Source: Thermodesulfobacteriota bacterium (GTDB lineage: Bacteria; Desulfobacterota; WTBG01; JAGOGO01). From it: a stretch of 32,000 nt of DNA. Below the pieces are notes generated by a model. The model made no database searches and had not been told where the DNA came from. It saw only the letters and a program-made list of their open reading frames with translations. Below are positions 4,575-23,193 of the stretch, in pieces. The translations under genes were made by a program, and so were the position numbers. Location of the stretch: NCBI GenBank assembly GCA_026625185.1, contig CP113000.1, forward strand, positions 90,001 to 122,000, read 5' to 3'. The stretch's first letter is position 1. Every line of letters begins with the position of its first letter.

Positions 4575-4715
4575 CCTATCAGGAATTTTTTCTTTTCGTA
4601 AACGCTGAGGAGCTGAGCTTTTTGTTGAGTTTTTCAAAACGATTCTGCCGGTCAAAAAACAGGTACCCTTGTCTCCTGAGTGGTTTTACTACCTGCTTTA
4701 ATCAAAACGATTATA
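4575..4715 (-). pseudogene. IS5-family transposase 5'-end relic (copy A)
   Basis: Minus-strand translation LFFDRQNRFEKLNK. The nucleotides are homologous to 28790-28902 (agtttttcaaaacgattctgcc..., tggttt.actac.tgc...aatcaaaac.attata). It has no start codon and is truncated after about 30 codons. Confidence 0.5.
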
Positions 4716-5798
4716 CTAGTGGAGTGCGTATAACGCTTCTTTACATTTGGCCACTTTAGTCAAAATTCGTTTCACAGGTGCGCTCCATACAAAGACCCGG
4801 GGGTTTTGGTTGTGATTGTCCAGATAATCTTTGATAGCAGCGATCAATGCGGGCACGTTCTGAAAGGTCCCGCGCCGGATACGTTTGTCGGTAATCTCGC
4901 GGAACCATCGTTCGATCATATTCAACCAGGAGCTTGAAGACGGAATAAAATGCAAATGAAACCGAGGATGCCTTTGAAGCCAGGATTTGACACGTGGATG
5001 TTTGTGGGTGCCATAATTGTCCACGATCAGATGCAGATCCAATCCAGTGGAGGTTTCGGCATCTATTTTCTTGAGAAAACGGATAAACTCCTGATGTCGA
5101 TACCGCGCCATACAGTCGCCGATTACCGTGCCGTCAAGCATGCTGAGAGCTGCGAACAAGGTGGTCGTCCCATTGCGTTTATAGTCGTGTATCATGGCGC
5201 CGCAGCGTCCTTTCTTTATCGGCAAGCCCGGCTGGGTTCGGTCGAGAGCCAGGATTTGACTCTTTTCGTCCGCACACAAAACCAAGGACTTATCCGGAGG
5301 ATTCAGATACAGCCCGACGATGTCGTGGAGTTTTTCTATGAAATGCTTGTCGCGGCTGAGTTTGAAGGTCTTGACCAGATGGGGCTTGAGGTTGTGTTGT
5401 TTCCATATCCGTCGAATCGTCGCTTCGCTGAGACCTTGGGCACTGGCCATACTTCGGGTACTCCAATGAGTTGCATGGGGAGGTTTCGTGTGCAGGGTCG
5501 CTTCGACTACGGTCCTGATTCTTTCTGGCGAAATTCTCGGAATTCGACCAGGACGGGGAGCATCTTTTTTCAAACCCACCAAGCGAAGAGCCAAAAACCG
5601 CTGACGCCATAGTTGAACCGTAGGACGCGAAACTTTCATCCTCCGGGCAATCTCTTGACTCTCCATTCCGGCGGCCGCCATCAGAATAATCTGAGCACGC
5701 TGTACAAGTCGCATTGGAAGGATCCTTCCGCGTATCCAAATGGCCAGGATTGAGTGCTCTTCGGGAGACAATACAATTTGCTCAGCTTGTCTGGTCAT
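4716..5798 (-). CDS. IS630-family transposase (HTH + DDE_3)
   Basis: 360 aa. N-terminal HTH (SQEIARRMKVSRPTVQLWRQRF), then DEKSQILALDR, LIVDNYGTHKH and SSSWLNMIERWF, which are hallmark IS630 blocks. Confidence 0.9.
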   Translation of the reverse strand: MTRQAEQIVLSPEEHSILAIWIRGRILPMRLVQRAQIILMAAAGMESQEIARRMKVSRPTVQLWRQRFLALRLVGLKKDAPRPGRIPRISPERIRTVVEATLHTKPPHATHWSTRSMASAQGLSEATIRRIWKQHNLKPHLVKTFKLSRDKHFIEKLHDIVGLYLNPPDKSLVLCADEKSQILALDRTQPGLPIKKGRCGAMIHDYKRNGTTTLFAALSMLDGTVIGDCMARYRHQEFIRFLKKIDAETSTGLDLHLIVDNYGTHKHPRVKSWLQRHPRFHLHFIPSSSSWLNMIERWFREITDKRIRRGTFQNVPALIAAIKDYLDNHNQNPRVFVWSAPVKRILTKVAKCKEALYALH

Positions 5799-5858: not shown

Positions 5859-6059
5859 TAGAAAAGCATAATAAAGTAAATATAGAGTGCTTAAATTAAT
5901 TTATGACAAAAAAAATAATTCGGCAAATCTTTTCAAAATTTCTGAGAGGAAAACTGGCCAAATTGTTTAGTATTTTCAATGGATTTGGATTCCATGCGGA
6001 TTACAAAAATCTCCGGCCCGAATCGGAATACTACCCACTGAAATTCGTAAGCGAAGGCC

Positions 6060-6365
6060 CAACATTGTGAGCGGCAATCTTCTTTTTCTGGAGAGGTTGA
6101 AGTTGATGAAAGCTGTTTTGGCGCCCGACGCATAAAGGGAAAACGTGGCCGGGAGCTTTTGGCAAAACAATTGTTTTTGGTATTTTTAAACGCCACGGGA
6201 AAGTCTTCCCCGAAATTATTCCTGATTGCCGAAGAACCAGGTTGCAAGCGGTTGTTCGAGGTCACCCAGGTCTAGAAAGGATCATTCATTCTGATGGCTG
6301 GCAAGGGTAAAATGGCCTCATTGACCGTGGTTACAAAAACACTTCAGCAGAGTCAACCTGCGGAT
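6060..6365 (+). pseudogene. IS1595-family (ISXO2-like) transposase relic
   Basis: Plus-strand fragments GEVEVDESCFGARRIKGKRGR / GAFGKTIVFGIFKRHGKVFPEIIPDC...IIHSDGWQG*NGLIDRGY. One frameshift near 6150 and an in-frame TAA near 6307. Confidence 0.6.
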
Positions 6366-6466
6366 AAATATAGGCAAATGGAGTCCTCACGGAGATCTTA
6401 ATGCCACAAAAATTCGCCTTGCCTACTTATAATATCAATCTAAGCGCCAGAATAAATAAGCCCAAA

Positions 6467-6524
6467 ACATTTTTCCGGTAAAAACCCCTCTGAGCGGGGC
6501 AAAGAGGCTTTTACCGGAAAAATG
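6467..6524. repeat. long perfect hairpin (16-bp arms, 26-nt loop)
   Basis: catttttccggtaaaa (6467-6482) is the exact reverse complement of ttttaccggaaaaatg (6509-6524). The loop contains its own cccc/gggg stem. Confidence 0.6.
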
Positions 6525-6641
6525 TGGGCCGAAATGTTGGTGCAAATAATGTGAGATTGTATGTCAAAGAGCGTGGAAGTTGGCAAAAAGAAGATAGCAT
6601 ACTGACGGATCGAGAAAATGACAACTACCAGAAAAAAAGAC

Positions 6642-6668
6642 TTGACAAACTTTGGGGGGGGGTATTAG
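6642..6668 (+). promoter_or_regulatory. sigma70-like motif with a G9 tract in the spacer
   Basis: TTGACA (6642-6647), a 15-nt spacer containing G9 (6654-6662), then TATTAG. The spacer length is suboptimal as written. Confidence 0.25.
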
Positions 6669-6788
6669 TCTCACAAGAATATTGCATACGGATAAGGCGG
6701 CTTCTGCTTAGGTCTCTTATTTAGAACGCAACCAAGAAATTTGATGTGATGGATAGAGACCTTTGAATTTTGCCATCTCACGACCCAG

Positions 6789-6862
6789 TCGTCATTCCGA
6801 CAAAAGTCGGATCCGGTATTTTCAGATATTTTCTGGATTCCGGATCAAGCCCGGAATGAGCG
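6789..6862. repeat. compound palindromic REP/MITE-like element
   Basis: Nested hairpins tccgac-aaaa-gtcgga (6796-6811) and attccgg-N7-ccggaat (6837-6857), with outer arms tcattccg / cggaatga. Confidence 0.5.
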
Positions 6863-7000
6863 AACAGCCCGTTTTCTAAGCTCATTTTAAAGATGGCTTG
6901 AATAATTTAGGTAATGGTTATGTAACGGTCGCATATTGTCAAGACTTTTTGAATCCTGATTTTTTTTCGATTCGATTCGAGAGATTTTGGAAAAAAGTTG

Positions 7001-7029
7001 TTGACTTTTTTTTTTGGAGTGGGTATTAA
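7001..7029 (+). promoter_or_regulatory. sigma70-like promoter candidate P2
   Basis: TTGACT-N17-TATTAA. The spacer starts with a T-run (T10 counting the -35 T). Confidence 0.4.
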
Positions 7030-7072
7030 TCAAAAAATAAATTTCGTAAAAAGCCCAAAAGCTCCTTACATT

Positions 7073-7101
7073 TGACGGGGAAGTTTGGTGGGGTTATTAA
7101 G
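7073..7101 (+). promoter_or_regulatory. sigma70-like promoter candidate P3
   Basis: TTGACG-N17-TATTAA, 72 bp downstream of P2 in the same orientation as the DUF1302 gene. Confidence 0.4.
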
Positions 7102-7463
7102 CGGCTGGATTCCTGTATATTGCTTTTTCTCTCCCATTTATTTTCACCCGCCAGAAGAGGAGTAATTTATTTTTTACAAGTTTAAATTTATTAGGCTCTA
7201 AAATTTTGAAAAGACTAGTTGCTGTTTTTTTTTCAGTTAGGGGGATAACTAGTCAAAGGAACGCGGAAAGCTATTCAAAAGGAGGTGATATTTATGGGGG
7301 TTTGACGGAATTTACGACGGGACAATGTTTAGTCCCTGGATATGTAAATTTCGCAATGTAAATTTTTTAAACTCAAGAGTTACAATTGACGGTTTTTCAT
7401 GGAACGAGGCACCGTTCAGCCTTATTAACCATAAAACCGCAAGGAGGAAGGAAGGGTGGTATA

Positions 7464-9185
7464 ATGAAAAAATCTTTTTTAGTCCCAATTTGTGTCTTGT
7501 TTTTAATATTGTTTTCAGCTTCTTCGGCATGGTGTATTGTCTTTGATTTACCCTGCGAGAGGAAGCTCTATCTTACCGGACATATAGACCAGTATGCACG
7601 ATATGGTTTACAAAACTCTAATACACTGCCTGGAGGAGGCAGGGTGGGAGGTGGTTACAGGGGGTTAACCGACGCTCTATATTCATTCCTTTTTGAAGTC
7701 CATTACATCCATAGTGACATGTTGGAGTTCAGAGTGGGAACGCGCCTGGAAGGCGACTGGGCCTATGCTATAAACCATAGTCAAAATAGTTGGAATGGGA
7801 AAAATGGGTTTGACCAGTCAGAAGGACAAATGAAAAGGCATACCCACAATTTACAGAGGGACTTCTTTAGAGAGTGTAACCTCAATTTCACCACGAATAC
7901 TTTTAGCGCGCGCCTCGGCAAGCAGACGGTGGTATGGGGAGAGACGGACCTTTTCAGGCTCATGGATATGTTCAACCCCCTCGATTACCAGCGTATTTAT
8001 GTGCTGCGCGACGCCGATTATGGATATGAGGAGACGAGGATCCCGCTTTGGGCGGTAAAGTTAGGCTACCAGCCTGATATAAGAGTAGACCCGTTTACCA
8101 ATCTCATGTTGGAGTTTGCCTGGACGCCGGAAGTCAGGCAGACCCTGCTCAATGTCGGTCCGAGGACTGGCGGCCCATGGGCGGTCCCCATACCCCACGA
8201 TATGCCTGATCTTACTGGTCTTGGTCTCGGCACATTGAAAGATCTCGATATAAACCCGGGTGATGACCACGGGATGCGCGGCATGTCAATGGAAAACTCC
8301 ACCTACGGTATCAGGCTAAGGGGCAACTGGGGGAATACGTACTTCACGATTAATGGCTTTCACGCCTGGGATGAATTTCCCATCTTCCAGACGAGACCCG
8401 GGTTCGTAGGCAATCTTGGCGCTGGGGGTCTTGGCATCCTCTATGGAGTTGGTGGACCATTTGGAGGGACTGGCGGCAATGTTGACGACGGATTCGGCTA
8501 TGGAATGGCATTGGACAAGAGGCTTTACCGTAAAGACGTGGTGGGGTTTACCCTGGCCAGGGAGATGGATTTCCTGCGGTCTTTTGTCCAGACCATAGGG
8601 CAGGTTGCCAACCCCACGGTGCGGGTCGAAAGTTACTACCAGTTCGACAAACATATAGCTACCCGCTGGGCCCAGGATGTAAAAGAAGGAGTTCTTAGGG
8701 TTAATGATGGCGATCCTGATGGCTTTAATCAAGTTTTGCATGGTATTGCCGACGGTGGAAAAGGATATAAAAAAAGGGATGTGCTCCGCTACATGGTCGG
8801 TTTTGACTGGCCTTTGAGATTACGGTATTTAAATCCGAGGAAAGAGTTCTTCACCTCCTTCCAGTTTACTCAGGAGCACATATTTGGCAGCGTGGGCGAC
8901 CGATTCTATTTTGTGCCCTACACCATGAAAATACCGAGGGATAAGATGGATATCACATTCCTGGCGAACACCGAATATTTTCACGAAAAGGTAAAGCCGC
9001 AGTACGCAATGGCATATGATATAAACCATAACGCTTACATGCCAAAATTCAGCTGCCGGTTCTGGCTGGGTGATCACTGGAGACCTGAGATAGGGTATAT
9101 GTATATCACCGGTCATACGGACCGAAGTCACGCCTGGTTCAAGAAATGTGATAATTTTTGGGCAAAACTTCAATACCAATGGTAA
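7464..9185 (+). CDS. DUF1302-family outer-membrane beta-barrel protein
   Basis: ATG at 7464 preferred over the TTG at 7386 in the ORF track. Signal peptide MKKSFLVPICVLFLILFSASSAW, motif LGKQTVVWGETDLFRLMDMFNPLD, and a C-terminal aromatic end ...KLQYQW. Confidence 0.8.
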   Translation: MKKSFLVPICVLFLILFSASSAWCIVFDLPCERKLYLTGHIDQYARYGLQNSNTLPGGGRVGGGYRGLTDALYSFLFEVHYIHSDMLEFRVGTRLEGDWAYAINHSQNSWNGKNGFDQSEGQMKRHTHNLQRDFFRECNLNFTTNTFSARLGKQTVVWGETDLFRLMDMFNPLDYQRIYVLRDADYGYEETRIPLWAVKLGYQPDIRVDPFTNLMLEFAWTPEVRQTLLNVGPRTGGPWAVPIPHDMPDLTGLGLGTLKDLDINPGDDHGMRGMSMENSTYGIRLRGNWGNTYFTINGFHAWDEFPIFQTRPGFVGNLGAGGLGILYGVGGPFGGTGGNVDDGFGYGMALDKRLYRKDVVGFTLAREMDFLRSFVQTIGQVANPTVRVESYYQFDKHIATRWAQDVKEGVLRVNDGDPDGFNQVLHGIADGGKGYKKRDVLRYMVGFDWPLRLRYLNPRKEFFTSFQFTQEHIFGSVGDRFYFVPYTMKIPRDKMDITFLANTEYFHEKVKPQYAMAYDINHNAYMPKFSCRFWLGDHWRPEIGYMYITGHTDRSHAWFKKCDNFWAKLQYQW

Positions 9186-9207
9186 AACTTTAAAAGAGAG
9201 GTAACTA

Positions 9208-10695
9208 ATGATGAAAAAGCATATTATTTTAATGGCGATGATGGTGGCGGTGGTTTCCTTGGTTTTTGCTAACTATGGCATTGCCGAGCCGCTTGAGGGG
9301 GCTGCCAAGCAGCGTCCTGCATATTACACATCTCCTTCTGCAGCCAAAGCTCTGAAGGTTCCCGATGCAGATAGAGCCAAGGCGGTAGCAGAGAGTTTTT
9401 TGGTTGTCAAAGAATTGAAAAGACCTGCCCCCGATTTCCAGGCGGATTTCCCCAAAAGACCCAAATTTAATGATAAATTTTTTCAAGACTGGAAGAAGAT
9501 GTGCGGTTATGATGCCCCGAGCCTCATTTCCTTAAACGATCCTGCCCCGGAGATTAAATCGGGGACAGTGATAACGCCTATGAATTACACTAGTTTCCCA
9601 AATCTGTATAAGATACTGCCCGAATCCCAGTTATGGCGGTTGACATCCAAGGGCTATCCGCAGCTAAAAAAGATAGAAGTGGAATCGACCACCCCTATCT
9701 ATTTCCATACCAAGATAGTGGAAGAATCCTATAAAAACGATGGTAAGATTTCGGTTGATCCCAAAACCCGTCAGCTGTTGGGTGGTTATAAGATAGGCTT
9801 GCCTTTTTTGCACCCGAAGACCGGATTGGAGTACGAGTGGAACGCTATTATGGCGAAGATCCATTTTCAAGACGAGTTCTCCTTCCAGACAATAAACTAT
9901 TTCAATTTTGACGGAAAGGGCAATGCTGAGAGAACGATCCGTTGTAATCTGTACTGGGCCCGTTTTCTGGGAAGATCGCATTCAAAGTACGACGCGGATT
10001 ACTATTATGAAGGAGCCGAACAGGAGAAGAAGGACGGAGTGTTGGAAAAGGGCTCCATGGTGGTCGTTTATCCTTCTGACATTAAAGGTTTTGCCTTTGT
10101 GCGCACCAGATACATGGACCCTGAACGTCCCGACTACTTTATAGCATACATACCGGGCATGAGGAGAGTGAGAGTATTATCGGGCACAGATGCGCAGGAC
10201 CCGATATTTGGAACGGAGCTGCAATGGGATACCTGGGCGACGGACTGGCAGAAGGTATCCGGCACCATCTACCCCAATGATTATAATATCATGGGCGAGG
10301 GTGTGCTTCTCTATCCAAGCTATATGCCCGCTCCTTCTGTGAGGGTGGAAGGAAATGTGATGTACACAAGATGGCAGAAGAGACCGGTAACGGTTTTAGA
10401 ATATGTCTCCAAAGATCCGAGATACTATTATGGCTATCGCGTAAAATATATGGATATGGAAACTAAGAGGGAAGCTCTTATGGAGTACTATGATACAAAA
10501 GGAAACTTATGGAGGACTTGGACAGGGTTCCGGTACCATTATCCTGATACTGCGGTTACCTGTTGGGAGGGTTGCGACATTCCGGATTACATTAACAGGC
10601 ATCATACCATCCTGAAAATGGAGAGCCGGCCCAATGACCCCACGATGACTCCGGCTTATTTTGACCTGCGGTTTTTGTCAAGACAGGCCAGATAG
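9208..10695 (+). CDS. DUF1329-family (LolA-like, outer membrane lipoprotein-sorting-type) periplasmic protein
   Basis: Lies 22 nt after the DUF1302 stop with its own SD (AGAGAGG). Has a signal peptide and the blocks GLPFLHPKTGLEYEWN and EYYDTKGNLWRTW. Confidence 0.8.
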   Translation: MMKKHIILMAMMVAVVSLVFANYGIAEPLEGAAKQRPAYYTSPSAAKALKVPDADRAKAVAESFLVVKELKRPAPDFQADFPKRPKFNDKFFQDWKKMCGYDAPSLISLNDPAPEIKSGTVITPMNYTSFPNLYKILPESQLWRLTSKGYPQLKKIEVESTTPIYFHTKIVEESYKNDGKISVDPKTRQLLGGYKIGLPFLHPKTGLEYEWNAIMAKIHFQDEFSFQTINYFNFDGKGNAERTIRCNLYWARFLGRSHSKYDADYYYEGAEQEKKDGVLEKGSMVVVYPSDIKGFAFVRTRYMDPERPDYFIAYIPGMRRVRVLSGTDAQDPIFGTELQWDTWATDWQKVSGTIYPNDYNIMGEGVLLYPSYMPAPSVRVEGNVMYTRWQKRPVTVLEYVSKDPRYYYGYRVKYMDMETKREALMEYYDTKGNLWRTWTGFRYHYPDTAVTCWEGCDIPDYINRHHTILKMESRPNDPTMTPAYFDLRFLSRQAR

Positions 10696-10721
10696 CCAAT
10701 TTTTGGGAGAGATCATTTTGT

Positions 10722-10751
10722 GAAGAGAGAGGTTTTTTTACCTCTCTCTTC
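10722..10751 (+). terminator. 12-bp perfect hairpin after the DUF1329 gene (possible terminator or RNA-stability element)
   Basis: gaagagagaggt-tttttt-acctctctcttc. No T-tract follows the stem. Confidence 0.45.
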
Positions 10752-11058
10752 GCTCCTCGCATTTTAATGCTGGAGTTTGGAGAGATAGGAATGGAAAATA
10801 AAATTTATGAACTCCTAAAAAGTCGTGAAGGGGGCTGAATTCGGCGGATTTGTAATAAGCTCCCTCCGGCCTTTGTAGGTGCAAGTCTTTGGCAAGGTGT
10901 GCGTGGCTCGATTGACAGGCGGCTCACAGTTCGCCATGAGGTGCAAGAGCTTGCGCTGTGAAGCCCGACAAAGGGAGAGGACGAAAATTTGATCCATACC
11001 CTACCTTTCTTTAATCCACTCCTAAGAGTGAAAGTTTTTTATAATTCCGGCTATCAAG

Positions 11059-11087
11059 TTGAGCAAAAGTCTCTTGTAATTTATAAT
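11059..11087 (+). promoter_or_regulatory. sigma70-like promoter upstream of usp
   Basis: TTGAGC-N17-TATAAT, ending 33 nt before the usp ATG. Confidence 0.5.
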
Positions 11088-11119
11088 GATATAAAAAAAT
11101 AAAAGAGGTAATCTAAGAG

Positions 11120-11617
11120 ATGGAAATTATAGTTAAAGCAGAAAGAAAAATATTATGGGCTAGCGATTTCTCTGAAATGTCTATTGAGGCTTTAAAAACT
11201 ACCCAAGTACTTTCTTTTATACCTCAACAAGAATTGATAGCCCTTCATATTATTGAAAACCCTATGGATAACTTATATAAACCAGAAGATTCAGTCCCTA
11301 TCAATAGGTTGACTCACGCAGAAGATATTGTTAAGGAAAAATTTAAAAAGATATTCGAGGAGTTTGGTATTGCTCCAAAGTTTTATAGGATAGAAGTGTT
11401 GACAATAGAAATAGGGAAACACGCAGGGGACAAGATTATAGAGGTAGCAGATAAAGAAAAAGTGTGGTTAATTATTATGGGAAGGGAAGCAAAGGGAATG
11501 AAAAGGTTATTAGGAAGCACCACTGAATATGTATTGGCTCATGCCAAATGTCCGATCCTTATTGTCCGCGGAAAAATAGATGAGGAAATTTTTGAGGGCC
11601 ACCCACGTTTAAAGTAA
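11120..11617 (+). CDS. universal stress protein (UspA family)
   Basis: 165 aa. ILWASDFSE... and C-terminal GSTTEYVLAHAKCPILIVRG are typical Usp motifs. SD is AAGAGG. Confidence 0.85.
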   Translation: MEIIVKAERKILWASDFSEMSIEALKTTQVLSFIPQQELIALHIIENPMDNLYKPEDSVPINRLTHAEDIVKEKFKKIFEEFGIAPKFYRIEVLTIEIGKHAGDKIIEVADKEKVWLIIMGREAKGMKRLLGSTTEYVLAHAKCPILIVRGKIDEEIFEGHPRLK

Positions 11618-11752
11618 GACGAGAAAACGATTTAAAATTTATGTGCCTGAAGGACTTGTTTATTTTTCGAATCTGACAATGTCGAGCTCAGGTTGAGAAT
11701 TAGGTGGAGAAAGTTATTATTATTATAAAAAAAGCATGGGGAGGTATACGAG

Positions 11753-12130
11753 ATGAAGACTGAAAGGATTATTTTTGGATTGATATTCATCACGGTTTTA
11801 GTATTTTTGGCTTCCTGCACAAGACCATCTGGCGAATTTGAGACAACCTTTAAATATGCTGATAATCCGGCTATTCCTGTTGCAATTTCGGCAACAACTA
11901 TTGATAAGCAGACAGGGAAAGTTGTCGCCAAGGGCGAGTTTGTTAGGGTCACCCCTGAAGGCACAACAATTGTTAAGGAAACACACTATACCAACTATGC
12001 GTTTATAAGGGTTCCTATTTTTACTTGCGAAACTGAATTTGGGGCCAATGGCGTTAAAATTGCGGAAGAGAGACCAAAAGGGAAAAGAGGTGGTTATGAT
12101 ATGTATCCTTCGTGGCCAACCCGTCAGTAA
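11753..12130 (+). CDS. small lipoprotein, no recognisable family
   Basis: 125 aa. Signal peptide with lipobox LASC, SD GGGGAGG, embedded in the cluster. Confidence 0.7.
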   Translation: MKTERIIFGLIFITVLVFLASCTRPSGEFETTFKYADNPAIPVAISATTIDKQTGKVVAKGEFVRVTPEGTTIVKETHYTNYAFIRVPIFTCETEFGANGVKIAEERPKGKRGGYDMYPSWPTRQ

Positions 12131-12286
12131 TTAGTTTTAAACTTGGGGGTGGTGGTAGTTAGAAAAGTTGACTATTGCTCATTATTCCATTTTACCAAAA
12201 AAAAGTAGAACGTGGGGTTCTGGCAAGTCAATTTGTAAACACTCCTTGAGAGTGAGACAATTTAAGAAGTTAAAGGAGGTTGTTAA

Positions 12287-13480
12287 ATGGTAATAAAAAA
12301 GTGGATGTATATGGCAGTACTTGGGATTGTAACTTTAGTCTTTTTTATCTTTGGATACTATTATCTTGAACAAACTTTTATTGCGAGGGAAGAATTACTT
12401 AAAAAGAAGGTTAAATACCGAGGGTTATTTCATGGATTATTTTCGGTAACAATGCCGGATTCATTGATTACCGCTGATGAGTTGCAAAGAAAGGTCTTTT
12501 ATGCAGTTGGTGAGAAGGGAACATTTTTAAAGACCGAAAATGCAGGAGACACTTGGAATGTTTCAACCATCTTACCTGATGAGAATCTTATAGCCGTTCG
12601 CTTCAAGACTGAAAATGAGGGATCGATTATAGGCACGAATGGCACCTTATTGAATACCACTGATGGTGGAAAGACCTGGAAGAAATATGATTTAAAGACC
12701 GACCGTACCCTTTGTAAGATGATTTTTATCAATAATGATAAGGGGTTCGTCATTGGAGAAGAGAGCCTGCTCTTCTGCACTGAAGATGGGGGAAAGACCT
12801 GGAAGAAAGGGCTTGAAGGGATAACGGAGGAGACCTACGGTGACCCCTGGATGCTTGAAATTTTTAATGATATAATGTTTGCAAATGAATCTGTAGGCTG
12901 GATAGTTGGTGAGGGAGGTATTATCATAAAGACCGAGGACGGTGGAAAAACCTGGAATGAGCAAAAATTGGGTTCAACTGCAGGACTGAATACTATTGCA
13001 GTCTTAGACCAAGACCGGGCCCTTGTTGCAGGTGAGCAGGGTGAACTTTACCGAACCTTCGATGGTGGTAAAACCTGGGAGAGGAAGGAAATAAAGGTAT
13101 TTGAGCTTGGAGATGAACCCGTAAAAAAAGCGATATACAAAGTTGCATTGCTTCCCTTTGGTGAAGGTGGGCCTCCCTTAAGTGATGTGAGGGCATGGCA
13201 TGTTTATATCCTCGGAGATAATGTTGGATTTAACTCCTATGATTTCGGCGATTCGTGGCGAACCATATCGAAAGATTCAGTATTAGCTAACTACTGGCTT
13301 TATGATGTGCTCCATGCGGGAGGTTCTTTGGCCTATCTGATACCAAAGGACAAATATAGTGGAACCATAGAAGAGCTTAGAGGAAGATGTCCACTTGCGT
13401 TTATGGTTGGCATAGAAGGAAAGGTTTTTAGAACAAAGGATAAGGGGCTACTTTGGGAGTCCATGAGCAGGTTCTTATAA
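12287..13480 (+). CDS. membrane-anchored BNR/Ycf48-like seven-bladed beta-propeller
   Basis: N-terminal TM helix plus seven spaced BNR blades (AGDTW, 4x DGGKTW, FGDSW, DKGLLW). SD is AAAGGAGG. Confidence 0.8.
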   Translation: MVIKKWMYMAVLGIVTLVFFIFGYYYLEQTFIAREELLKKKVKYRGLFHGLFSVTMPDSLITADELQRKVFYAVGEKGTFLKTENAGDTWNVSTILPDENLIAVRFKTENEGSIIGTNGTLLNTTDGGKTWKKYDLKTDRTLCKMIFINNDKGFVIGEESLLFCTEDGGKTWKKGLEGITEETYGDPWMLEIFNDIMFANESVGWIVGEGGIIIKTEDGGKTWNEQKLGSTAGLNTIAVLDQDRALVAGEQGELYRTFDGGKTWERKEIKVFELGDEPVKKAIYKVALLPFGEGGPPLSDVRAWHVYILGDNVGFNSYDFGDSWRTISKDSVLANYWLYDVLHAGGSLAYLIPKDKYSGTIEELRGRCPLAFMVGIEGKVFRTKDKGLLWESMSRFL

Positions 13481-13507
13481 AATTATAGAAAAGAAGGGGT
13501 AAGGACT

Positions 13508-15892
13508 ATGGAAGAAAAAATAGAAGGTAAGGAAGAAAAATTAAAATGGAATTGGAAGTTAGTAAAGTATAGAAAATTTATCCTATTAATCTTATTTGGA
13601 TTAACAGTTATGTTTGGCTTAGGATTGACCATGTTGAATTTTCAGGTCAGATTACAAGACCTGCTTCCTCCTACGCATCCCTTTGTAAAAGTAACTTCCA
13701 GGTATACGGAAAAATTTGGAGGTATTGACAATTTTGTTATCACCTTAGATGCAATAAAGGGGGAGATATTTAAGGCTGACATATTGAAGACCATATTTGA
13801 TTTAACAGATGAGGTGGTGTTTTATCCTGAAGTGGCGCGTTCCACGGTAACCTCAATCGGACTGAATAAGGCAAAATCAATCGAGGCAAAAGGTAAGGGG
13901 GAGGTGGAGATAAATGCCCTTATGTTTCCACAACCACCTTCTGAGGAAAAGGGCATCGCCGAACTTAAAAGTAGGATTCTGGGTCTTAATGCAATCCTTT
14001 ATAAAGGGATATTTGTCAGTGACGCTGGAACTTCTGCCCTTATAGCCGGCACCCTGAAAGAAGGGGCGGATTACAGGAAATTTTTTGACTTTGTAAGAGG
14101 ATTGAAAATTAAGTATGAAAAAAAATATCCAAATCTTCAGGTAAAGTTTATAGGACACCCACTGCTCATGGGGTGGATATATTATTACATCCCCCAGATG
14201 GGTATAATATTTTTAATAACATTCGCGCTTTTCATGGTCATTCTCCTGGTGTCATACCGCAGTGTCGCCGGGGTGGTAACACCTATTTTGTGTGGTGTAC
14301 TCAGCGCTGTATGGGGAATGGGATTCATAGGCATTATGGGCTATAACATGGACCCTTTACTTATCGTGATACCATTTTTGATCGGGGTAAGGTCATTTTC
14401 TCATGGTATTCAGATTACAGCCCGCTATATTGATGAGTATAACCACTTTTTGGACGCCGAAAAAGCTGCGGCAGTAACAATCGATACTATGCTTATCCCA
14501 AATGCTTCAGCTATAGGGGCAGAGATTGGGGGGTTTGTTGCCCTTGTCTTTGCCGGTATTATCAGTATACAAGTAATGGCATTAACTATGTCATTCTGGA
14601 TGATCGGCGTATTTTTATTCTCTGGTATATTTGTCCCGCTAATTTGTATGTATCTACCTAAGCATATAAAGATTAAAGGACTTGACCTGGAGATTGAGAA
14701 GAAAAAAGAAGATATAGTAGATAGGATAATTTATAAGACAACAACCATCGCCACTGGCCTTCATAAAAGATGGGCAGTCCTTGGCATACTTGCAGTGGTT
14801 TTTGCAATAGGTAGTGTTTTTGCCGCCAAGCTCAAGGTCGGAGACTTATCACCTGGTTCTCCCATCCTATGGCCGAATTCAGAATACAATCAGGCAGCTA
14901 AAACCGTTACCAGTTTATACAGCCGCAGCGGATCGGACACCTATTCCATTTACCTCCGCGGAGCGAACCCAGGGGATGCAAAAACACCCGCCGCCCTTAA
15001 ATGGATAGACGGTTATGATATATTTATGAGGGAGAACATGCCGGAAAAATTCGGTGGAACTATCTCCTTTGCCGGTCTGGTAAAGAAACTGAACCGGGAA
15101 TTTCATGGAGGGGATCCAAAATGGTATTTTATACCTCCGGATCGGATAACTTCAGATCAGATGGTCTTTTTCCTTATTGGAAAGGCAAACCCTGGAGATT
15201 ATGCAACCTTTATTGATATACCATTCCAGGAAGCTCAGATAACGAGTTTCTTCCGTGACCATTTTCCGGATACGATAAATCAAGGGGTTGATTTTACTAA
15301 AGAATACATAAAAAGATTTCCACCGCCCAAGGGGGTAGAAATAGACCTTGCAAGCGGCAGTGTAGGTTTAAATAAGGCGATAAACGACGAACTTGCGCGC
15401 TCTCACTGGCCTATAACCGTAGCGGTTTTACTTTTCATATTTGTCGTATGTGTGTGTACTTTCAGAAGTGTGATTTGCGCGGTGCTACTTGTCCTTCCCA
15501 TACTTATCGCGCGGGCCGTTATGTTTACTGCCCTGTATTATATGAATATTGGAATTTCAGTGGCGAGTCTTACGGTTACAGCTGTGGGGCTTGGTATTGG
15601 CGTGGATTTTGGGATTTATATAGTTGCGCGGGTAAAGGAAAAGTATGCGGAAGACCCGGATCTGGATAAGGCAGTATTCTACGGAATGGCAACCGCAGGC
15701 AAGGCGGTCTTCTTCACAGCGGCAGTGGTAATAGTTCCGGTTGCATTATGGTATTTCTTATCCAGCGTTAAATTCTGGGGCGAAATGGGCTTTTTCCTCT
15801 CAGGCATTCTGCTTTGCAGCCTGGTTATAATAATGTTTTTTATACCAGCAATTTTGGTTACACTTAGACCAAAATTTATAACTACCCAGTAG
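13508..15892 (+). CDS. RND-superfamily (MMPL/HpnN-like) inner-membrane transporter, copy 1
   Basis: 794 aa with a duplicated 1+5 TM topology and two large periplasmic loops. Starts 27 nt after the propeller gene. Confidence 0.85.
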   Translation: MEEKIEGKEEKLKWNWKLVKYRKFILLILFGLTVMFGLGLTMLNFQVRLQDLLPPTHPFVKVTSRYTEKFGGIDNFVITLDAIKGEIFKADILKTIFDLTDEVVFYPEVARSTVTSIGLNKAKSIEAKGKGEVEINALMFPQPPSEEKGIAELKSRILGLNAILYKGIFVSDAGTSALIAGTLKEGADYRKFFDFVRGLKIKYEKKYPNLQVKFIGHPLLMGWIYYYIPQMGIIFLITFALFMVILLVSYRSVAGVVTPILCGVLSAVWGMGFIGIMGYNMDPLLIVIPFLIGVRSFSHGIQITARYIDEYNHFLDAEKAAAVTIDTMLIPNASAIGAEIGGFVALVFAGIISIQVMALTMSFWMIGVFLFSGIFVPLICMYLPKHIKIKGLDLEIEKKKEDIVDRIIYKTTTIATGLHKRWAVLGILAVVFAIGSVFAAKLKVGDLSPGSPILWPNSEYNQAAKTVTSLYSRSGSDTYSIYLRGANPGDAKTPAALKWIDGYDIFMRENMPEKFGGTISFAGLVKKLNREFHGGDPKWYFIPPDRITSDQMVFFLIGKANPGDYATFIDIPFQEAQITSFFRDHFPDTINQGVDFTKEYIKRFPPPKGVEIDLASGSVGLNKAINDELARSHWPITVAVLLFIFVVCVCTFRSVICAVLLVLPILIARAVMFTALYYMNIGISVASLTVTAVGLGIGVDFGIYIVARVKEKYAEDPDLDKAVFYGMATAGKAVFFTAAVVIVPVALWYFLSSVKFWGEMGFFLSGILLCSLVIIMFFIPAILVTLRPKFITTQ

Positions 15893-15912
15893 TAATTAAT
15901 GGTAAAAAAAAG

Positions 15913-15942
15913 GAAGCGGCCTTTCACGGCCGCTTCTTTTTT
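15913..15942 (+). terminator. rho-independent, probably bidirectional terminator
   Basis: gaagcggcc-tttcac-ggccgcttc followed by T6 and preceded by A8. Confidence 0.8.
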
Positions 15943-16001
15943 AAAGACATTCTCCAATCTTTTCCAATCTCCTTTATATCTTTCACTCCATTCCCATTAT
16001 C

Positions 16002-16189
16002 TACCCATTTCCCGACAGGCCTCCCCCTTCTCCATTGGGATAGCTTCACACCTGCCTCCCGTAGCATCCCTATTAACTGCTCCGCCTTAATAAAACGCTT
16101 CCAACTGATCCCTGACCCCCCCCATTTCGATCCAGTTTATGCTTTAAATACTAACATAAAAACTGGACCGGTTTTCGAGGGGCTGGTCA
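16002..16189 (-). mobile_element. IS3-family left-end relic (copy A; IRL plus start of orfA only)
   Basis: The minus strand starts TGACCAGCCCCTCGAAAACCGG. It then reads ATG-G8 and, after a 1-nt shift, SWKRFIKAEQLIGMLREAGVKLSQ (an IS3 OrfA N-terminus). Homologous to 22857-23048. Confidence 0.55.
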
Positions 16190-16291
16190 TTTGTGATGCT
16201 TCGCATGAAATTTGGTGATAAGTTGGTTAATAGCAATCAAGGCACATATTCCCACGAAGATATAAACACTCATTAGCACGCTGTGTTCCAT
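16187..16291 (-). CDS. 34-aa single-TM ORF (copy A); either a small protein or the N-terminal stub of an IS-disrupted gene
   Basis: MEHSVLMSVYIFVGICALIAINQLITKFHAKHHK with SD AAAGGAGG. A variant copy exists at 23046-23162. The stop codon TGA coincides with the first bases of the IS3 relic. Confidence 0.4.
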   Translation of the reverse strand: MEHSVLMSVYIFVGICALIAINQLITKFHAKHHK

Positions 16292-16324
16292 GGTTACGCC
16301 TCCTTTCTTTAATAGGGATACTAT

Positions 16325-16339
16325 TGGTTTAGTGAACCA
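16325..16339 (-). promoter_or_regulatory. inverted repeat TGGTT-N5-AACCA between promoter and SD of the small ORF
   Basis: Perfect 5-bp arms here. The arms extend to 7 bp (ATTGGTT-N5-AACCAAT) in copy B at 23194-23212. Confidence 0.35.
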
Positions 16340-16362
16340 CTAAAAAATATTTTTCTGAATAT

Positions 16363-16391
16363 ATAATTCGCCATTAATCTTCGCCAGTCAA
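16363..16391 (-). promoter_or_regulatory. sigma70-like promoter candidate for the small ORF
   Basis: Minus strand TTGACT-N17-AATTAT. The same motif is conserved in copy B. Confidence 0.35.
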
Positions 16392-16460
16392 TACGGGATA
16401 GTTACGTGTTTTCTACTTGGTAAAACCTAGCAAAAATAGGGAGGAAGCTGAAACTATCAG

Positions 16461-17765
16461 GAATTTCTAATGAATTTTTGATACGGGAGGTAACACCCAG
16501 AACAGTGAAAATGGGTATTTTATTTCTCACGGTGCGTCAAGGCACACGTTCTGCCTGCTATTTTTCGGACAGAGTGAGGAGAAAAGAGCACAGGTTGTTC
16601 GCTTTGTGGGCGACCCCCAGCTTCTTCCGGATGTTGTTCCGGTGGAATTCTACGGAACGTACGGAGAGCATGAGGATTTCCGCGATCTCCTTGCTGGACT
16701 TGCCGTCCTTGATCAGTTTGGTGATCTGGATCTCCCGGGGCGTAAACTTGGCAAAACGAGCGGAAAGTTTCTGCAGAAAGGGGTTAATGATCTGCTGAAG
16801 ATTGGTTTCGATGATGTCCATGTAATTCAATTGCGCGGGAGTCGAACAGCGCTTCCGGAGTTCACCCAGGTAAGGCAGAACTAATTTTTCGACATTGGCG
16901 ACGATTTTTTTCTCCATTTCCCTGATATCTGCCTCCCGGCGCTGGAGAATAACCTGCAGAGCCATGTTGGTCTCCGCAAGCTGCAGGGACTCAGCGGCCA
17001 ATTCCTCCTCCCTCTTTCTAAGAGCATCTTCGATACGCCTGCTTTCGGTGACGTCATGGCATATCACTTGAAATTGCTTTTTACCGTCCCATAACACGGC
17101 TCTGCGGAAAACCTGGAGGCGCCGGACGACGCCGTCTTTCCTGACGATACTTATTTCATATTCGTTCGGGACATATTCGCCCCGCAGTCTTTTATCGAAT
17201 CTTATCTTAAAGTCAGCATAACTTTCGGGAGTATAGCGCTTTTTAACGGGGATTGCTATCAGTTCATCAAGGCTGTCGTAGCCATAGATATCCAGGAAAG
17301 CCCGATTGGCATAAAGCGTCTCGCCATCGATCGTAACGATGCGTACCCCCAATGGTGATTCATCAAGGGAACGATGGAAGTTCTCTTCAGCCCGTTGCAG
17401 CGCCTCCTCCGTGCGCTTGCGCAAGCTGACGTCACGAAATGAGATGACCCTGCCCTGCAGCTCAGCCCCTTGCAGGAGAGGACGCGAAAAGCGTTCAAAT
17501 AACCTTCCGTCTTTGAAATACAGGGTATCGAAAGCATCTCCTTTCAATTTGGCCTGTTCCCGGACCGTTTGTAGGAAATCTTTCGGATCGCTCAGTTGAT
17601 CAAGGACGTATCGAAGCATGACATTGTAATCCTTGCCGGCTATTAACTCTTGGGGGATCATCCACATTTCCGAAAAACGTTCATTGCTAAAAAGCACCTT
17701 GTTGTCCAGGTTGACAGCGAGGATGCCGTCCGCTGTAGAGTCCAGAATCGCTTGCAGCGATAACT
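16461..17765. repeat. 1305-bp perfect direct repeat, copy A
   Basis: Identical to 23324-24628 (offset 6863). Overlapping ORFs in at least 4 frames translate identically in both copies, and spot-checked lines match. Confidence 0.9.
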
Positions 17766-18519
17766 CGCTTCCCTTGAGCGCCGCTTCTGTTTCCTGCCGG
17801 GCGGTGTCGCTCTTTTTTCGCTCCTCGATTTCCGCCAGTAACCGGGAGATTGTTTCCTCGAGTTTTGCGGTCCGCTCGGTTAATAGATTTTCAACCTCGT
17901 TTTTGGCCACCAGCAGCGCCTCCTCTGCCTGCTTGAGTGCCGTTATATCGGTGATAATGACCCGAACCAAAGGGAGATCGTTGGCGCTTCGCACCAAGGC
18001 GGCTTCGAAGTGTACCCATAAGAGAGCGCCGTCCTTGCGCAGCAGTCTGAGTTCGCCGTTTTGTGGCCCTCCCGTTTCTAAAAGCCCTCGCCAAAAACGG
18101 TAGTAGCGTTCCCGATCATTCCGGCATATAAAATCGGTGACCGGCCGGTTGAGCAACTGGTCTCTTTCCACGCCCATTACCTTCGCGGCGGCAAGATTGG
18201 TCTCCAGGATTATCCCCTCTTCACTGAGGGTGAGGTACCCTACCGGGGCCAGGTCATAGAGATCAAAGTACTTTCTCCGGGACGCTTCGAGTTCTTCCTG
18301 CGCCTGCCGCAGCTCCTTATTTTGCATCTCCAGCTCGTTCTGGTAGACCTGCAACTCGTGAATTGCCTGCCGCACATTCTCCTCAGCGGACAGCGCGTCC
18401 ATGTTTCCCGGCATCCGGGCAGCCTTCCGCCGGACTATCTCCTCTGCCTGCTTGCCAAAATCGACGAAATCATCTCGTCTGGTCTTTTTTGCGGTCATCA
18501 CGGCACCTTTCCGCCTCAT
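16558..18519 (-). CDS. triple-PAS sensor / LuxR-type (GerE HTH) transcriptional regulator, full length
   Basis: 653 aa. Coiled-coil linkers and three PAS-like modules, with C-terminal FTPREIQITKLIKDGKSSKEIAEILMLSVRSVEFHRNNIRKKLGV. SD GGAGAG sits before the ATG at 18519. Confidence 0.9.
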   Translation of the reverse strand: MRRKGAVMTAKKTRRDDFVDFGKQAEEIVRRKAARMPGNMDALSAEENVRQAIHELQVYQNELEMQNKELRQAQEELEASRRKYFDLYDLAPVGYLTLSEEGIILETNLAAAKVMGVERDQLLNRPVTDFICRNDRERYYRFWRGLLETGGPQNGELRLLRKDGALLWVHFEAALVRSANDLPLVRVIITDITALKQAEEALLVAKNEVENLLTERTAKLEETISRLLAEIEERKKSDTARQETEAALKGSELSLQAILDSTADGILAVNLDNKVLFSNERFSEMWMIPQELIAGKDYNVMLRYVLDQLSDPKDFLQTVREQAKLKGDAFDTLYFKDGRLFERFSRPLLQGAELQGRVISFRDVSLRKRTEEALQRAEENFHRSLDESPLGVRIVTIDGETLYANRAFLDIYGYDSLDELIAIPVKKRYTPESYADFKIRFDKRLRGEYVPNEYEISIVRKDGVVRRLQVFRRAVLWDGKKQFQVICHDVTESRRIEDALRKREEELAAESLQLAETNMALQVILQRREADIREMEKKIVANVEKLVLPYLGELRKRCSTPAQLNYMDIIETNLQQIINPFLQKLSARFAKFTPREIQITKLIKDGKSSKEIAEILMLSVRSVEFHRNNIRKKLGVAHKANNLCSFLLTLSEK

Positions 18520-19265
18520 GGACTCTCCGTCTTAGAGGCTGCTGTTCTTTTGTCGGTGTCCGGTTGTTTTTGTGTGGATCTTTTATCGGGCCCCCGTGTT
18601 ACAAATAACAATGACTGAAGGAAAGAAAAGAGGACGCGCTCGTTGGTAGATGTCAATGTCAATATTATAAAAATAATGCCAACTATCCGCAAGGATGTCA
18701 AATGAAATGTGTCCGATAGATGTTGGTTAACCTTTGAAACCATCACCCATTCTGTCTTCGACTGGTGGGTGATTTAAAGAAAGTTGGGTTTGATGACCGT
18801 CTTTACACAAGCTGTAAACTGAACTTCGTCCTACGGCAAAAAATTACTATAAAACATTGTTTCTCGTGATTTCACCGGCAAATTTTGAGGAATTGCTTAT
18901 TTTCTAATTATTTCAATAAAATACTAAATTCCAGGAAAATGGGGGAAATCAGGGGAGTAATCAATAAGATCAACGTGTTGTTTGGATTTGACAAAATGAA
19001 TCTGAGTTTTTTGGTAAAACCATGAATAGCAGAAGGGCGAAACCAGCCGTTGATTATAGACCAATCCAAAATTAGTGCAGATTATCCTTACCGATCCAAG
19101 TCAGTTCCAGTATTTTTCTCATGCTCGCAGGGAGAGCGTTAAAAAGTATGCGGTGGTGGTGTGCCGAGTATATGGAAATGGCGCTTGGGTGTCAAAGAAA
19201 AAATTACCACAATATCAATACCCTCCCCATCTCCTTTATATCTTTTATATCTTTCTTACCGTTCC

Positions 19266-19753
19266 TTACCAATGTTTCTTTTTTATCTCCCCTTTCATTA
19301 TCTTACCGGGTGAGTTTTTAGGCAGTTCATTCCAGAATTCAACAGATTTGGGTTTCTTATTTGAAGCAAGTTATTTTTGGCAAAATCAATAATCTCCTGT
19401 TCATTAGCCCGCCTCCCTGTCCTAAGTGCCACTATAGCCTTAACAGACTCACCACATTGTGAGTCAGTAACTCCAATTACAGCCGCTTCATGAAAGGCAG
19501 GATGTCTGCATAACACATCCTCAACCTCTTTGCTGGAGATATTTTTTCACCACTTATGACCATATCTTTCTTGCGATCAACAATATAGTATAGCTGTCCT
19601 CATCTACCCTTCCCACATTTCCGGTATATAGCCAACCATTTTTAAAGGTCTCTTTTGTCTCTTCAAGTTGTTTCCAGTAACCTAAGGTCAGGTTCCCTCT
19701 GGAATAATCTCTCCGATAAGCACACGCGAGGTTCTCGACTTATCTATTACCGG
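19266..19753 (-). pseudogene. acyl-CoA ligase (AMP-binding enzyme) C-terminal relic
   Basis: Minus-strand fragments across at least 3 frames: LGYWKQLEETKETFKNGWLYTGNVGRVDEDSY / YIVDRKKDMVISG / KEVEDVLCRHPAFHEAAVIGVTDSQCGESVKAIVAL / KKPKSVEFWNELPKNSPGKI. Confidence 0.7.
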
Positions 19754-22132: not shown

Positions 22133-22475
22133 AATCCACCCCCTTTCTTTATATTTTTATAAAAATGGATCTTCCGGTTTTGTTGTGCATAAAATCATCC
22201 ACATTTATGCTTTTTAATAAATGAAGTTATGCCTTTTAGGATCAAGCATTCCTGATCCTTGATATCTTTGTGTTACAGGATGGAACAGGCCTTTTTTTGC
22301 TGGCGCTCAAGCCTTGCACTGTATTCTTGGGTTCGTCCAGATGTGGTTTTAGCGTGGATCGGGCACGGAATTACTGAGATTTTATATGTCTCGGCAAGTG
22401 TTTTCGCTTCCATCTATCTTCTGTAACCGAGATCAGAAAACGTGTCAATTCTCAAAGAACAATTGTTGTGCCTTT

Positions 22476-23048: not shown

Positions 23049-23162
23049 TCTGTGATGCTTCTCATGAAATTTGGTGATAAGTTGGTTAATAACAATCAAG
23101 GCACATATTCCCACGAAGATATAAACACTATATAGAACGCTGGTCATAACGCTGGTTTCCAT
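23046..23162 (-). CDS. 38-aa single-TM ORF (copy B of 16187-16291)
   Basis: METSVMTSVLYSVYIFVGICALIVINQLITKFHEKHHR with SD AAAGGGGG. The longer 66-aa form in the ORF track is not conserved in copy A. Confidence 0.4.
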   Translation of the reverse strand: METSVMTSVLYSVYIFVGICALIVINQLITKFHEKHHR

Positions 23163-23193
23163 GGTTACACCCCCTTTCTTTAATGGGGATACT

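Follow-up and report, generated by a model that had tools for sequence, protein, structure and literature searches.

We analysed a stretch of 32,000 nucleotides (nt) from a Thermodesulfobacteriota genome (the window; contig CP113000.1, positions 90,001 to 122,000) that carries a cluster of six genes, g1 to g6, encoding a DUF1302 barrel, a DUF1329/LolA-like protein, a universal stress protein (Usp), a small predicted lipoprotein, a Ycf48-like propeller and an RND permease. An initial annotation, made from the DNA letters alone, had described six co-directional genes with short gaps. We found the corresponding open reading frames (ORFs), all on the plus strand, at 7464-9185, 9208-10695, 11120-11617, 11753-12130, 12287-13480 and 13508-15892. 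The gaps between them, from g1 to g6, measure 22, 424, 135, 156 and 27 nt, and the 424 nt between g2 and g3 contradict the description of short gaps throughout. An exact-sequence look-up matched g2-g6 to WAC07727.1-WAC07731.1, whose GenBank entries belong to a Thermodesulfobacteriota metagenome-assembled genome (MAG) with OS130 locus tags. g1 lay outside this look-up; it precedes g2 as OS130_00565 precedes OS130_00570, in the position of Protein #32, WAC07726.1. Proteins #32-37 (WAC07726.1-WAC07731.1) are the 'Nanopod' gene cluster of ORM2a, 'Candidatus Anaerobenzenivorax', the benzene degrader of a methanogenic enrichment culture with a closed genome of 3,300,546 bp (Toth et al. 2026, Appl Environ Microbiol 92(4):e02083-25, PMC13101534). 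Furthermore, the identities of g1-g6 to the surveyed loci L004/L005 and L009 closely fit the Table 3 columns of that paper for ORM2b and for the hydrothermal-vent MAG AUK045. The cluster at 7464-15892 is the already published 'Nanopod' cluster of ORM2a, with the same DNA and the same gene order. We regard this identity and the family assignments, taken by themselves, as nearly certain. The six genes probably build an envelope-spanning transporter for oily molecules, and the type of the four-gene core has been known since 2018.

Toth et al. annotated Proteins #32-37 as hypothetical/porin-like, DUF1329, universal stress protein, hypothetical, YCF48-related and MMPL transporter, and the main text of PMC13101534 is silent on DUF1302, AmeABCD, the second RND copy and the PAS-LuxR genes. 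What our annotation adds to that text is the placement of g1 in DUF1302 and, as the chief gain, the link to AmeABCD.

A scan that covered a single genome for each species, with aligned g2 relatives as the query, yielded 57 loci, nearly all from Desulfobacterota (Desulfobacterales, Syntrophorhabdaceae, Desulfatitalea); adding loci from an exact protein look-up brought the set to 62. Many genomes hold several copies, at least nine in one Desulfatitalea MAG. All four core families (DUF1302, DUF1329, Ycf48-like/BNR and RND) lie on one strand within 10 kb in 32 of the 62 loci; this four-family neighbourhood is far from chance and bears out the conservation in relatives that the initial annotation had expected. 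Many of the surveyed loci hold the DUF1302-DUF1329 pair alone. Distant relatives mostly have the order BNR, RND, DUF1302, DUF1329, and the ORM2 clade has DUF1302, DUF1329, Usp, BNR, RND, an order that is kept, Usp included, down to 40% g2 identity. The closest counterpart is a module of ~13 kb at 5887-18841 that is collinear with ORM2b and comprises a 110-aa ORF, a long upstream region, the six genes and a PAS-LuxR gene. A blastn comparison of the window with L004 gave two collinear pieces of 89-90% identity with outer ends at 5887 and 18841; the flanks differ between the genomes.

Four core envelope proteins

Hidden Markov model searches of Pfam assigned g1, g2, g3, g5 and g6 to the families that the initial annotation had named for them (DUF1302, DUF1329/LolA-like, Usp, Ycf48-like/BNR and RND/MMPL). 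The DUF1302 outer-membrane beta-barrel protein g1 (7464-9185, plus strand) matches PF06980 with 50.9 bits (cut-off 23.2); this is its sole Pfam match, and a FadL/Toluene_X domain is absent. The start at 7464 is backed by a Shine-Dalgarno sequence and by the ORM2b orthologue, and the signal peptide, the block GKQTVVWGETDLFRLMDMFNPLD and the aromatic C-terminal end LQYQW, the latter two already quoted from the letters, are all present. Sequence searches returned no solved homologue of g1. An AlphaFold2 (AF2) model built from 25 homologues (pTM 0.75, mean pLDDT 72.8) is nearly all beta-strand, and its top Foldseek matches in the PDB are the 16- to 18-stranded porins MOMP, OmpF, chitoporin and OccAB1 (E 1e-9 to 4e-11). 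We considered the alkane-uptake proteins AupA/AupB as relatives and rejected them: AupA is described as a FadL-family protein, and the AupA/AupB paper mentions neither DUF1302 nor DUF1329.

The periplasmic protein g2 (9208-10695, plus strand; WAC07727.1) matches PF07044 DUF1329 with 99.4 bits and PF17131 LolA_like with 45.8 bits. It has a signal peptide and lacks a lipobox, and it matches LolA-like lipoprotein-sorting structures (PDB 3BK5, E 3.9e-5).

At the inner membrane, g5 (12287-13480, plus strand; WAC07730.1; 397 aa) is a Ycf48-like seven-bladed propeller that matches PF14870 PSII_BNR/Ycf48 with 113.8 bits and the Ycf48 structure PDB 2XBG with E 2e-24. The N-terminal hydrophobic anchor and the seven blades described earlier can both be read in the sequence, the blades as seven Asp-box motifs. 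The MMPL/HAE3-type RND permease g6, or RND-A (13508-15892, plus strand; WAC07731.1), matches Pfam MMPL with 93.6 bits in two stretches. Of the NCBIfam models, TIGR00921 (HAE3) fits it best, over the entire length (model positions 1-732 of 733), but the 144 bits fall short of the curated threshold of 351.9. Hydropathy fits the twelve transmembrane (TM) segments and two large periplasmic loops proposed before, in the arrangement TM1, a loop of ~185 aa, TM2-6, TM7, a loop of ~190 aa and TM8-12, and the PDB matches are MmpL3, MmpL4 and HpnN. The TM10 Asp (residue 700, motif G-V-D-F-G) is kept in 31 of 35 homologues and is Asn in RND-B, a second copy of the permease gene downstream. Neither the six proteins nor their neighbours match HlyD or OEP/TolC families, and g6 reaches only 16 bits against ACR_tran (cut-off 28), so that the locus falls outside the tripartite HAE1 (AcrAB-TolC type) systems.

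Two additional genes and expression of the cluster

Between the two halves of this core lie g3 and g4. The cytoplasmic g3 (11120-11617, plus strand; WAC07728.1) matches Pfam Usp with 68.2 bits and the structures 2PFS (E 5e-9) and 1MJH (E 3e-8) in the PDB. It lacks the canonical ATP motif G-2x-G-9x-G-(S/T) of MJ0577-type Usps: its motif, G-R-E-A-K-G-M-K-R-L-L-G-S-T, differs from that of MJ0577 in that the second Gly is replaced by Ala and the loop is two residues shorter. The same variant is present in all five cluster-linked Usps that we aligned (5/5). Searching with a profile of cluster-linked Usps located a Usp gene directly downstream of the DUF1329 gene in eight loci (L004-L009, L011 and L012) and in none of the remaining surveyed loci; L011 and L012 keep it although their g2 identity is 39-40%. 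By this profile-based distribution, the Usp is a conserved, clade-specific addition in a Desulfobacterota clade. Control of the system by nucleotides through g3 is a hypothesis only.

The product of g4 (11753-12130, plus strand; WAC07729.1) is a predicted lipoprotein of 125 aa. Residues 19-22 read L-A-S-C after a hydrophobic stretch, which fits the lipobox [LVI][ASTVI][GAS]C with Cys22 as its cysteine and agrees with the initial annotation; no Pfam family matches even at E <=1. The family is tiny, with 12 matches among 1.84 billion representative proteins, and the lipobox Cys is retained in the six closest of nine relatives. Within the cassette, g4 is limited to ORM2a and ORM2b, and more distant family members occupy unrelated contexts. 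The AF2 model is confident (pLDDT 84.6) and predicts a six-stranded beta structure with no significant fold match in the PDB (best E 0.11). Weak sequence matches to giant repeat proteins were set aside since they look like generic beta-sandwich similarity. We thus describe g4 as a putative lineage-specific accessory lipoprotein. The text of PMC13101534 calls #34 an uncharacterised cytoplasmic protein and #35 a universal stress factor, and its own Table 2 and accessions give the reverse; moreover, the signal peptide and lipobox predict that the non-Usp protein of the two, g4 (WAC07729.1), is not cytoplasmic.

All six products were detected in published ORM2a proteomes, with 106, 158, 6, 7, 65 and 60 spectra for g1-g6, consistent with the co-expression that the initial annotation had anticipated. 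In the proteome of the benzene-grown culture, g2 ranks 4th and g1 18th (PMC13101534). The spectra for g3 and g4 are 15- to 26-fold below those for g1 and g2. This fall after g2 fits either attenuation or two transcription units. A perfect 14-bp hairpin without a U-tract (10720-10753, plus strand) starts 25 nt past the g2 stop codon; the RNA fold of 10705-10775 has -30.9 kcal/mol and z = -4.9, and the stem is conserved in ORM2b. We regard this hairpin as a candidate attenuator or mRNA-stabilising element. A promoter-like site, TTGAGC-17-TATAAT (11059-11087, plus strand), lies 33 nt upstream of g3 and has 10/12 consensus matches; such sites are no commoner in the g3 upstream region than in shuffled sequence, which makes it weak evidence. 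The 424-nt gap with its hairpin may divide the cluster into two expression units instead of one tight operon. The gap (10696-11119) is mostly well conserved with ORM2b up to ~10985, about 250 nt past the hairpin, for example in TGACAGGCGGCTCACAGTTCGCCATGA at 10913-10939, and ORM2b carries ~200 extra nt in it. This sequence occurs once in the window, and the gap region has no Rfam match.

Upstream of g1, a non-coding region of 1.2 kb (6266-7463, plus strand) contains no ORF of at least 80 aa. It holds three promoter-like repeats (TTGAC, 10-16 nt, GGKTATTA) at 6642-6667, 7001-7028 and 7072-7099, where 0.01 were expected; the motif is limited to the ORM2a and ORM2b loci, plus single minus-strand matches in L006 and L007. 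A search for sigma-54 promoters gave matches no commoner than chance, and none of five Rfam matches in the region was significant, all lying far below the gathering scores. We rejected the idea that this region is unusually conserved: 6641-7463 is 92% identical to ORM2b, within the coding range of 86-95%. At the other end of the cluster, the strong terminator proposed at 15913-15942 is a bidirectional intrinsic terminator, in which an A-run precedes and a T-run follows a GC-rich stem of 9 bp; it reads GAAGCGGCC-TTTCAC-GGCCGCTTC at 15913-15936, followed by T6, and folds with z = -6.6. GC content varies within the cluster, from 51% over the latter half of g1 (8001-9000) to 36-39% across g3-g5 (11001-13000), which may come from the Gly-rich barrel sequence or from differing origins of the two halves.

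Related systems and the direction of transport

The four-family core of the ORM2a cluster matches AmeABCD of Castellaniella defragrans 65Phen, which encodes DUF1302, DUF1329/LolA-like, COG4447 Ycf48-like and RND proteins (HAE3 there, HAE3-like in ORM2a) in the order found here and, like the ORM2a cluster, sits in an island for anaerobic hydrocarbon catabolism, there of monoterpenes (PMC6394551). The HAE3 permease AmeD comprises 787 aa and 12 TM segments (PMC6394551). The ORM2a cluster contains the DUF1302, DUF1329/LolA and Ycf48-like members of this type, adjacent and co-directional despite the two extra genes and the 424-nt gap. The two systems, compared by description and not by alignment, differ in that neither a Usp nor a small lipoprotein separates B from C in AmeABCD, and AmeC is a protein of 316 aa that is predicted to be soluble, whereas g5 has 397 aa and an N-terminal anchor. 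Deletion of ameABCD lowered tolerance to non-functionalised monoterpenes and slightly raised Nile Red accumulation; the mutant grew poorly on hydrocarbons as sole carbon source and was rescued by acetate, and it was more sensitive to high limonene even when acetate was supplied (PMC6394551). The initial annotation had stated that such neighbourhoods have no demonstrated substrate or mechanism. That view overlooked these deletion phenotypes and is partly outdated.

The same four families are represented in Pseudomonas putida by PP_0765/PP_0766 and PP_2018/PP_2019 and in Shewanella amazonensis by Sama_1588-1591, mutually co-fit in each case, and co-fitness of the four families extends over Shewanella, Kangiella and Pseudomonas (Price et al. 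2016). From the pleiotropic co-fitness, Price et al. 2016 proposed 'export of a cell wall component'. PP_0765/0766 and PP_2018 were required on Tween 20 and butyl stearate, whereas for PP_2019 and PP_0767, the latter a LuxR regulator, the requirement was seen on Tween 20 (Thompson et al. 2020); the fatty-ester fitness result that the initial annotation had cited is correct. A LuxR-type regulator adjoins the outer-membrane pair in P. putida, and one also neighbours the ORM2a cluster. The Pseudomonas genes differ in forming two pairs at separate loci. Neither the Pseudomonas nor the Shewanella set includes a Usp or a lipoprotein, and the phenotypes seen in these aerobes relate to fatty esters and pleiotropic stress. 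In published co-folding, DUF1302 and DUF1329 are predicted to form a complex (ipTM 0.84), as are DUF1329, BNR and RND proteins. In Delftia, deletion of a DUF1329 gene impairs growth on phenanthrene, and DUF1302 and DUF1329 proteins are present in vesicle and nanopod preparations. The 'Nanopod', AmeABCD and Pseudomonas/Shewanella literatures are joined here, with no mutual citation noticed among them, and the link gives the ORM2a cluster testable homologues in genetically tractable organisms.

The best characterised matches of g6 are HpnN (hopanoids), MmpL3 (trehalose monomycolate) and BstA (sterols), which share 12 TM segments, two periplasmic loops and the TM10 Asp; their substrates differ, and the scores of g6 all lie far below the family cut-offs. 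The HpnN, MmpL3, MmpL4 and BstA families are exporters, in which lipid is pulled from the inner membrane and moved outward. HpnN works without co-encoded periplasmic or outer-membrane partners (PMC6394551). The architecture also recalls the Lol pathway (LolCDE, LolA, LolB), in which energy is spent on extraction at the inner membrane and a carrier of LolA fold delivers to an acceptor in the outer membrane; here, however, an RND protein stands in place of the ABC transporter, a large barrel takes the part of LolB, and the cargo is not a lipoprotein.

The trans-envelope architecture for a hydrophobic substrate that the initial annotation had proposed agrees with the domains, the co-fitness, the published AlphaFold complexes and the proteomics. 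Going beyond the protein identities, families, predicted folds, conserved neighbourhood and protein expression, we infer a complex, a cargo, a direction and roles for the accessory proteins. Tentatively, we favour a four-part envelope transporter of the AmeABCD type, with an HAE3-like RND permease at its centre and net outward movement, and put the probability of this whole statement, direction included, at about 0.45. The proton-driven permease g6 would pull a membrane-partitioned hydrophobe out of the inner membrane. g5, anchored in the inner membrane and facing the periplasm, would sit against the periplasmic loops of g6. g2 would ferry the hydrophobe through the periplasm, visiting the g5/g6 complex and the barrel in turn, and the porin-like g1 would dock g2 and pass the cargo through the outer membrane. 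In ORM2a the cargo may be benzene or a hydrophobic by-product, and the pump would limit the solvent load of the membrane during life on benzene. The Usp g3 might tune the pump from the cytoplasmic side, g4 would be a lineage-specific accessory lipoprotein, and the PAS-LuxR protein encoded downstream is the likely regulator.

We favour the outward direction because the characterised relatives of g6 (MmpL3, MmpL4, HpnN and BstA) export, because energy input at the inner membrane serves extraction and not insertion, and because the ameABCD mutant is limonene-sensitive even with acetate (PMC6394551). Several observations weigh against this reading. Toth et al., who propose transport of benzene across the envelope, state that its direction is unknown (PMC13101534), and no experiment bears on this cluster itself, its host being available in enrichment culture only. 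The very high abundance of barrel and carrier resembles a substrate-acquisition system, and the growth defects of P. putida and Delftia on poorly soluble substrates would fit uptake equally. The growth defect of the ameABCD mutant on sole-carbon hydrocarbons likewise fits uptake, and the Nile Red effect was slight (PMC6394551). Furthermore, the HAE3 score of g6 falls under the curated cut-off, the non-canonical ATP motif of g3 leaves nucleotide control unproven, and the g2-g3 gap with its hairpin and promoter-like site would allow the genes of the outer-membrane pair to form one unit and those of the inner-membrane set another, as in Pseudomonas.

If the same parts served uptake, g1 and the abundant g2 would bring benzene or another poorly soluble hydrophobe past the lipopolysaccharide barrier and through the periplasm, and the RND/propeller pair would hand it to the inner membrane or clear it from there. 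The proposal of benzene transport leaves room for this (PMC13101534), as does the acetate rescue of the ameABCD mutant (PMC6394551). The ranks of g2 and g1 in the benzene-grown proteome point the same way, as do the Delftia phenanthrene defect and the P. putida homologues, which are required on fatty esters and dispensable on free fatty acids. However, putting a hydrophobe into the inner membrane costs no energy, and we know of no bacterial RND permease that imports; MmpL3, HpnN and BstA export. The limonene sensitivity despite acetate also argues against uptake (PMC6394551), which we consider unlikely but a serious rival. Outward movement might instead concern an endogenous envelope lipid or surface component, in outer-membrane building, vesicles or 'nanopods', with the hydrophobe phenotypes arising indirectly from an altered surface. 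The proposal of Price et al., the vesicle and nanopod preparations of Delftia and the hopanoid, sterol and mycolate cargoes of the nearest characterised RND relatives are all in keeping with this; the place of the cassette in catabolic islands, for monoterpenes in one case and in the other an ORM2a island with the benzene 'Magic' cluster, speaks against it, and the many paralogues per genome (at least nine in the Desulfatitalea MAG) suit diverse external substrates better. We rate export of an endogenous component as rather unlikely.

It is quite improbable that two independent functions merely adjoin here, with g1-g2 a passive channel and g3-g6 a separate stress-linked pump that share no conduit. 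The 424-nt gap with its strong hairpin and promoter-like site, the drop in spectra at g3 and g4, the many loci with the DUF1302-DUF1329 pair alone and the Pseudomonas pairs, which are located apart and differ in the sign of their phenotype in one condition, would be expected under such a split, but the linkage of four families in 32/62 loci in two different gene orders, the co-fitness across species and the published co-folding that places DUF1329 in complexes with both partners would not. That the DUF1302/DUF1329 proteins act as esterases or as hydrolases of another kind, an idea first raised for P. putida from a fatty-ester-specific fitness defect where no esterase had been identified, is hardly credible: the model of g1 is a porin-like barrel, g2 resembles a LolA-like carrier, neither protein matches a hydrolase family, later modelling re-read the same P. 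putida proteins as transport proteins, and ORM2a lives on benzene, which has no ester bond. Whether an outward pump or one of these alternatives operates matters beyond this locus. The DUF1302/DUF1329/Ycf48-like/HAE3-RND cassette is widespread and abundant, the ORM2a copy is among the top expressed loci in anaerobic benzene degradation, and whether it imports, exports or buffers benzene is relevant to the way in which strict anaerobes cope with a toxic and unreactive substrate. Further leads are the conserved Usp partner, the tiny g4 family, the possible expression as two units and the recombining second pump copy.

A second RND copy and the surrounding DNA

Convergent with g6 lies a gene for a PAS-PAS-PAS-GerE (LuxR-type) regulator assigned by Pfam (16558-18519, minus strand; WAC07732.1), which we regard as a candidate regulator of the cluster; it has zero spectra in the published proteomes. 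A counterpart with 89% aa identity stands beside the cluster in ORM2b. The initial annotation had seen in this regulator and in acyl-CoA ligase relics an echo of the P. putida association. Both elements exist, the latter as a 72-aa relic of an acyl-CoA synthetase C-terminal domain (19298-19516, minus strand; OS130_00600; PF13193 AMP-binding_C), but the echo is weak: the LuxR neighbour is shared with ORM2b alone, more distant relatives having a TetR regulator or none, and the relic region is absent from the ORM2b locus.

The initial annotation missed two further genes in this part of the window. One is RND-B (19688-22132, minus strand; WAC07733.1), an intact g6 paralogue of 814 aa without partner genes, which forms with g6 a 2.4-kb inverted repeat (13490-15880 / 19760-22150) of 86% nt identity and ~76% aa identity over the alignment; it has zero spectra in the published proteomes. 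We considered whether the change of the TM10 Asp to Asn marks RND-B as dead and found it not decisive, as L008 and L009 also have Asn there, in orthologues that belong to intact cassettes. The other is a truncated second PAS-LuxR gene, identified by Pfam (23421-24698, minus strand; WAC07735.1, 425 aa), which lacks the first PAS domains. It belongs to a 1.8-kb direct repeat (16002-17765 / 22857-24628), 96.5% identical with one 300-nt stretch at 100%, that duplicates the C-terminal two-thirds of the PAS-LuxR gene and its downstream region. Directly upstream of RND-B are transposase fragments (22476-22863, minus strand), which may be read as IS3-type from an HTH_Tnp_1 match of 23.0 bits, below the cut-off of 24.1. 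The region of RND-B and the second PAS-LuxR gene, together with the ligase relic, has no counterpart in the ORM2b locus.

Comparison with other samples of the culture revealed exchange between the two permease genes. A 588-kb contig (L073) differs from the window at 14 positions in 20,445 nt. All 14 lie in 21933-21997, within RND-B, and equal the g6 bases at the homologous positions, demonstrating a gene-conversion tract. In an 8.9-kb contig from a third sample (L002, 3300040744; compared with window positions 9061-22162), the 5' two-thirds of g6 continue into the 3' third of RND-B, which is followed by the DNA downstream of RND-B. Identity to g6 is 100% in the 5' part save at 13701, where the base is of RND-B type, and identity to RND-B is 100% in the 3' part. 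The crossover falls inside the longest identical run of the two copies (104 nt, 15038-15141), where an assembler could also switch paths, so that the contig represents either an inversion of the ~5.4-kb segment between the copies or an assembly switch. It is conceivable, if improbable, that g6 and the inverted RND-B 3.9 kb downstream form a two-cassette recombination system in which conversion and inversion across the 86%-identical arms swap permease segments that include the second periplasmic loop and TM8-12. The culture population would then carry pump variants of altered specificity or activity. Arrangements of an expressed locus and a silent locus are known from surface-antigen variation, which such a system would resemble, here for a transporter.

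Elsewhere in the window we found no tRNA genes, and an Rfam search of the whole window and of its two long intergenic regions gave no credible RNA family. The 110-aa ORF that opens the module shared with ORM2b (5933-6265) has no Pfam match at relaxed thresholds. A YdbH-like (AsmA-family) intermembrane phospholipid-transport protein is encoded at 112-2073 (minus strand), a second envelope-lipid system near the cluster, and just beyond the start of the window the source contig carries genes for a DUF1318 protein and a 68-aa protein. A transposase ORF of 360 aa with a DDE_3 domain and an IS630-like look lies at 4716-5798 (minus strand), 1.7 kb upstream of g1. Beside it, a 40-nt sequence (4619-4658) recurs at 28794-28833 with 90% identity, possibly as a lone insertion-sequence end. 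Toth et al. found the ORM2a cluster on an island that, with the benzene 'Magic' cluster, occurs only in benzene specialists (PMC13101534), and the DDE_3 transposase, the 40-nt repeat and the transposase fragments at 22476-22863 fit its description as a 'genomic island'.

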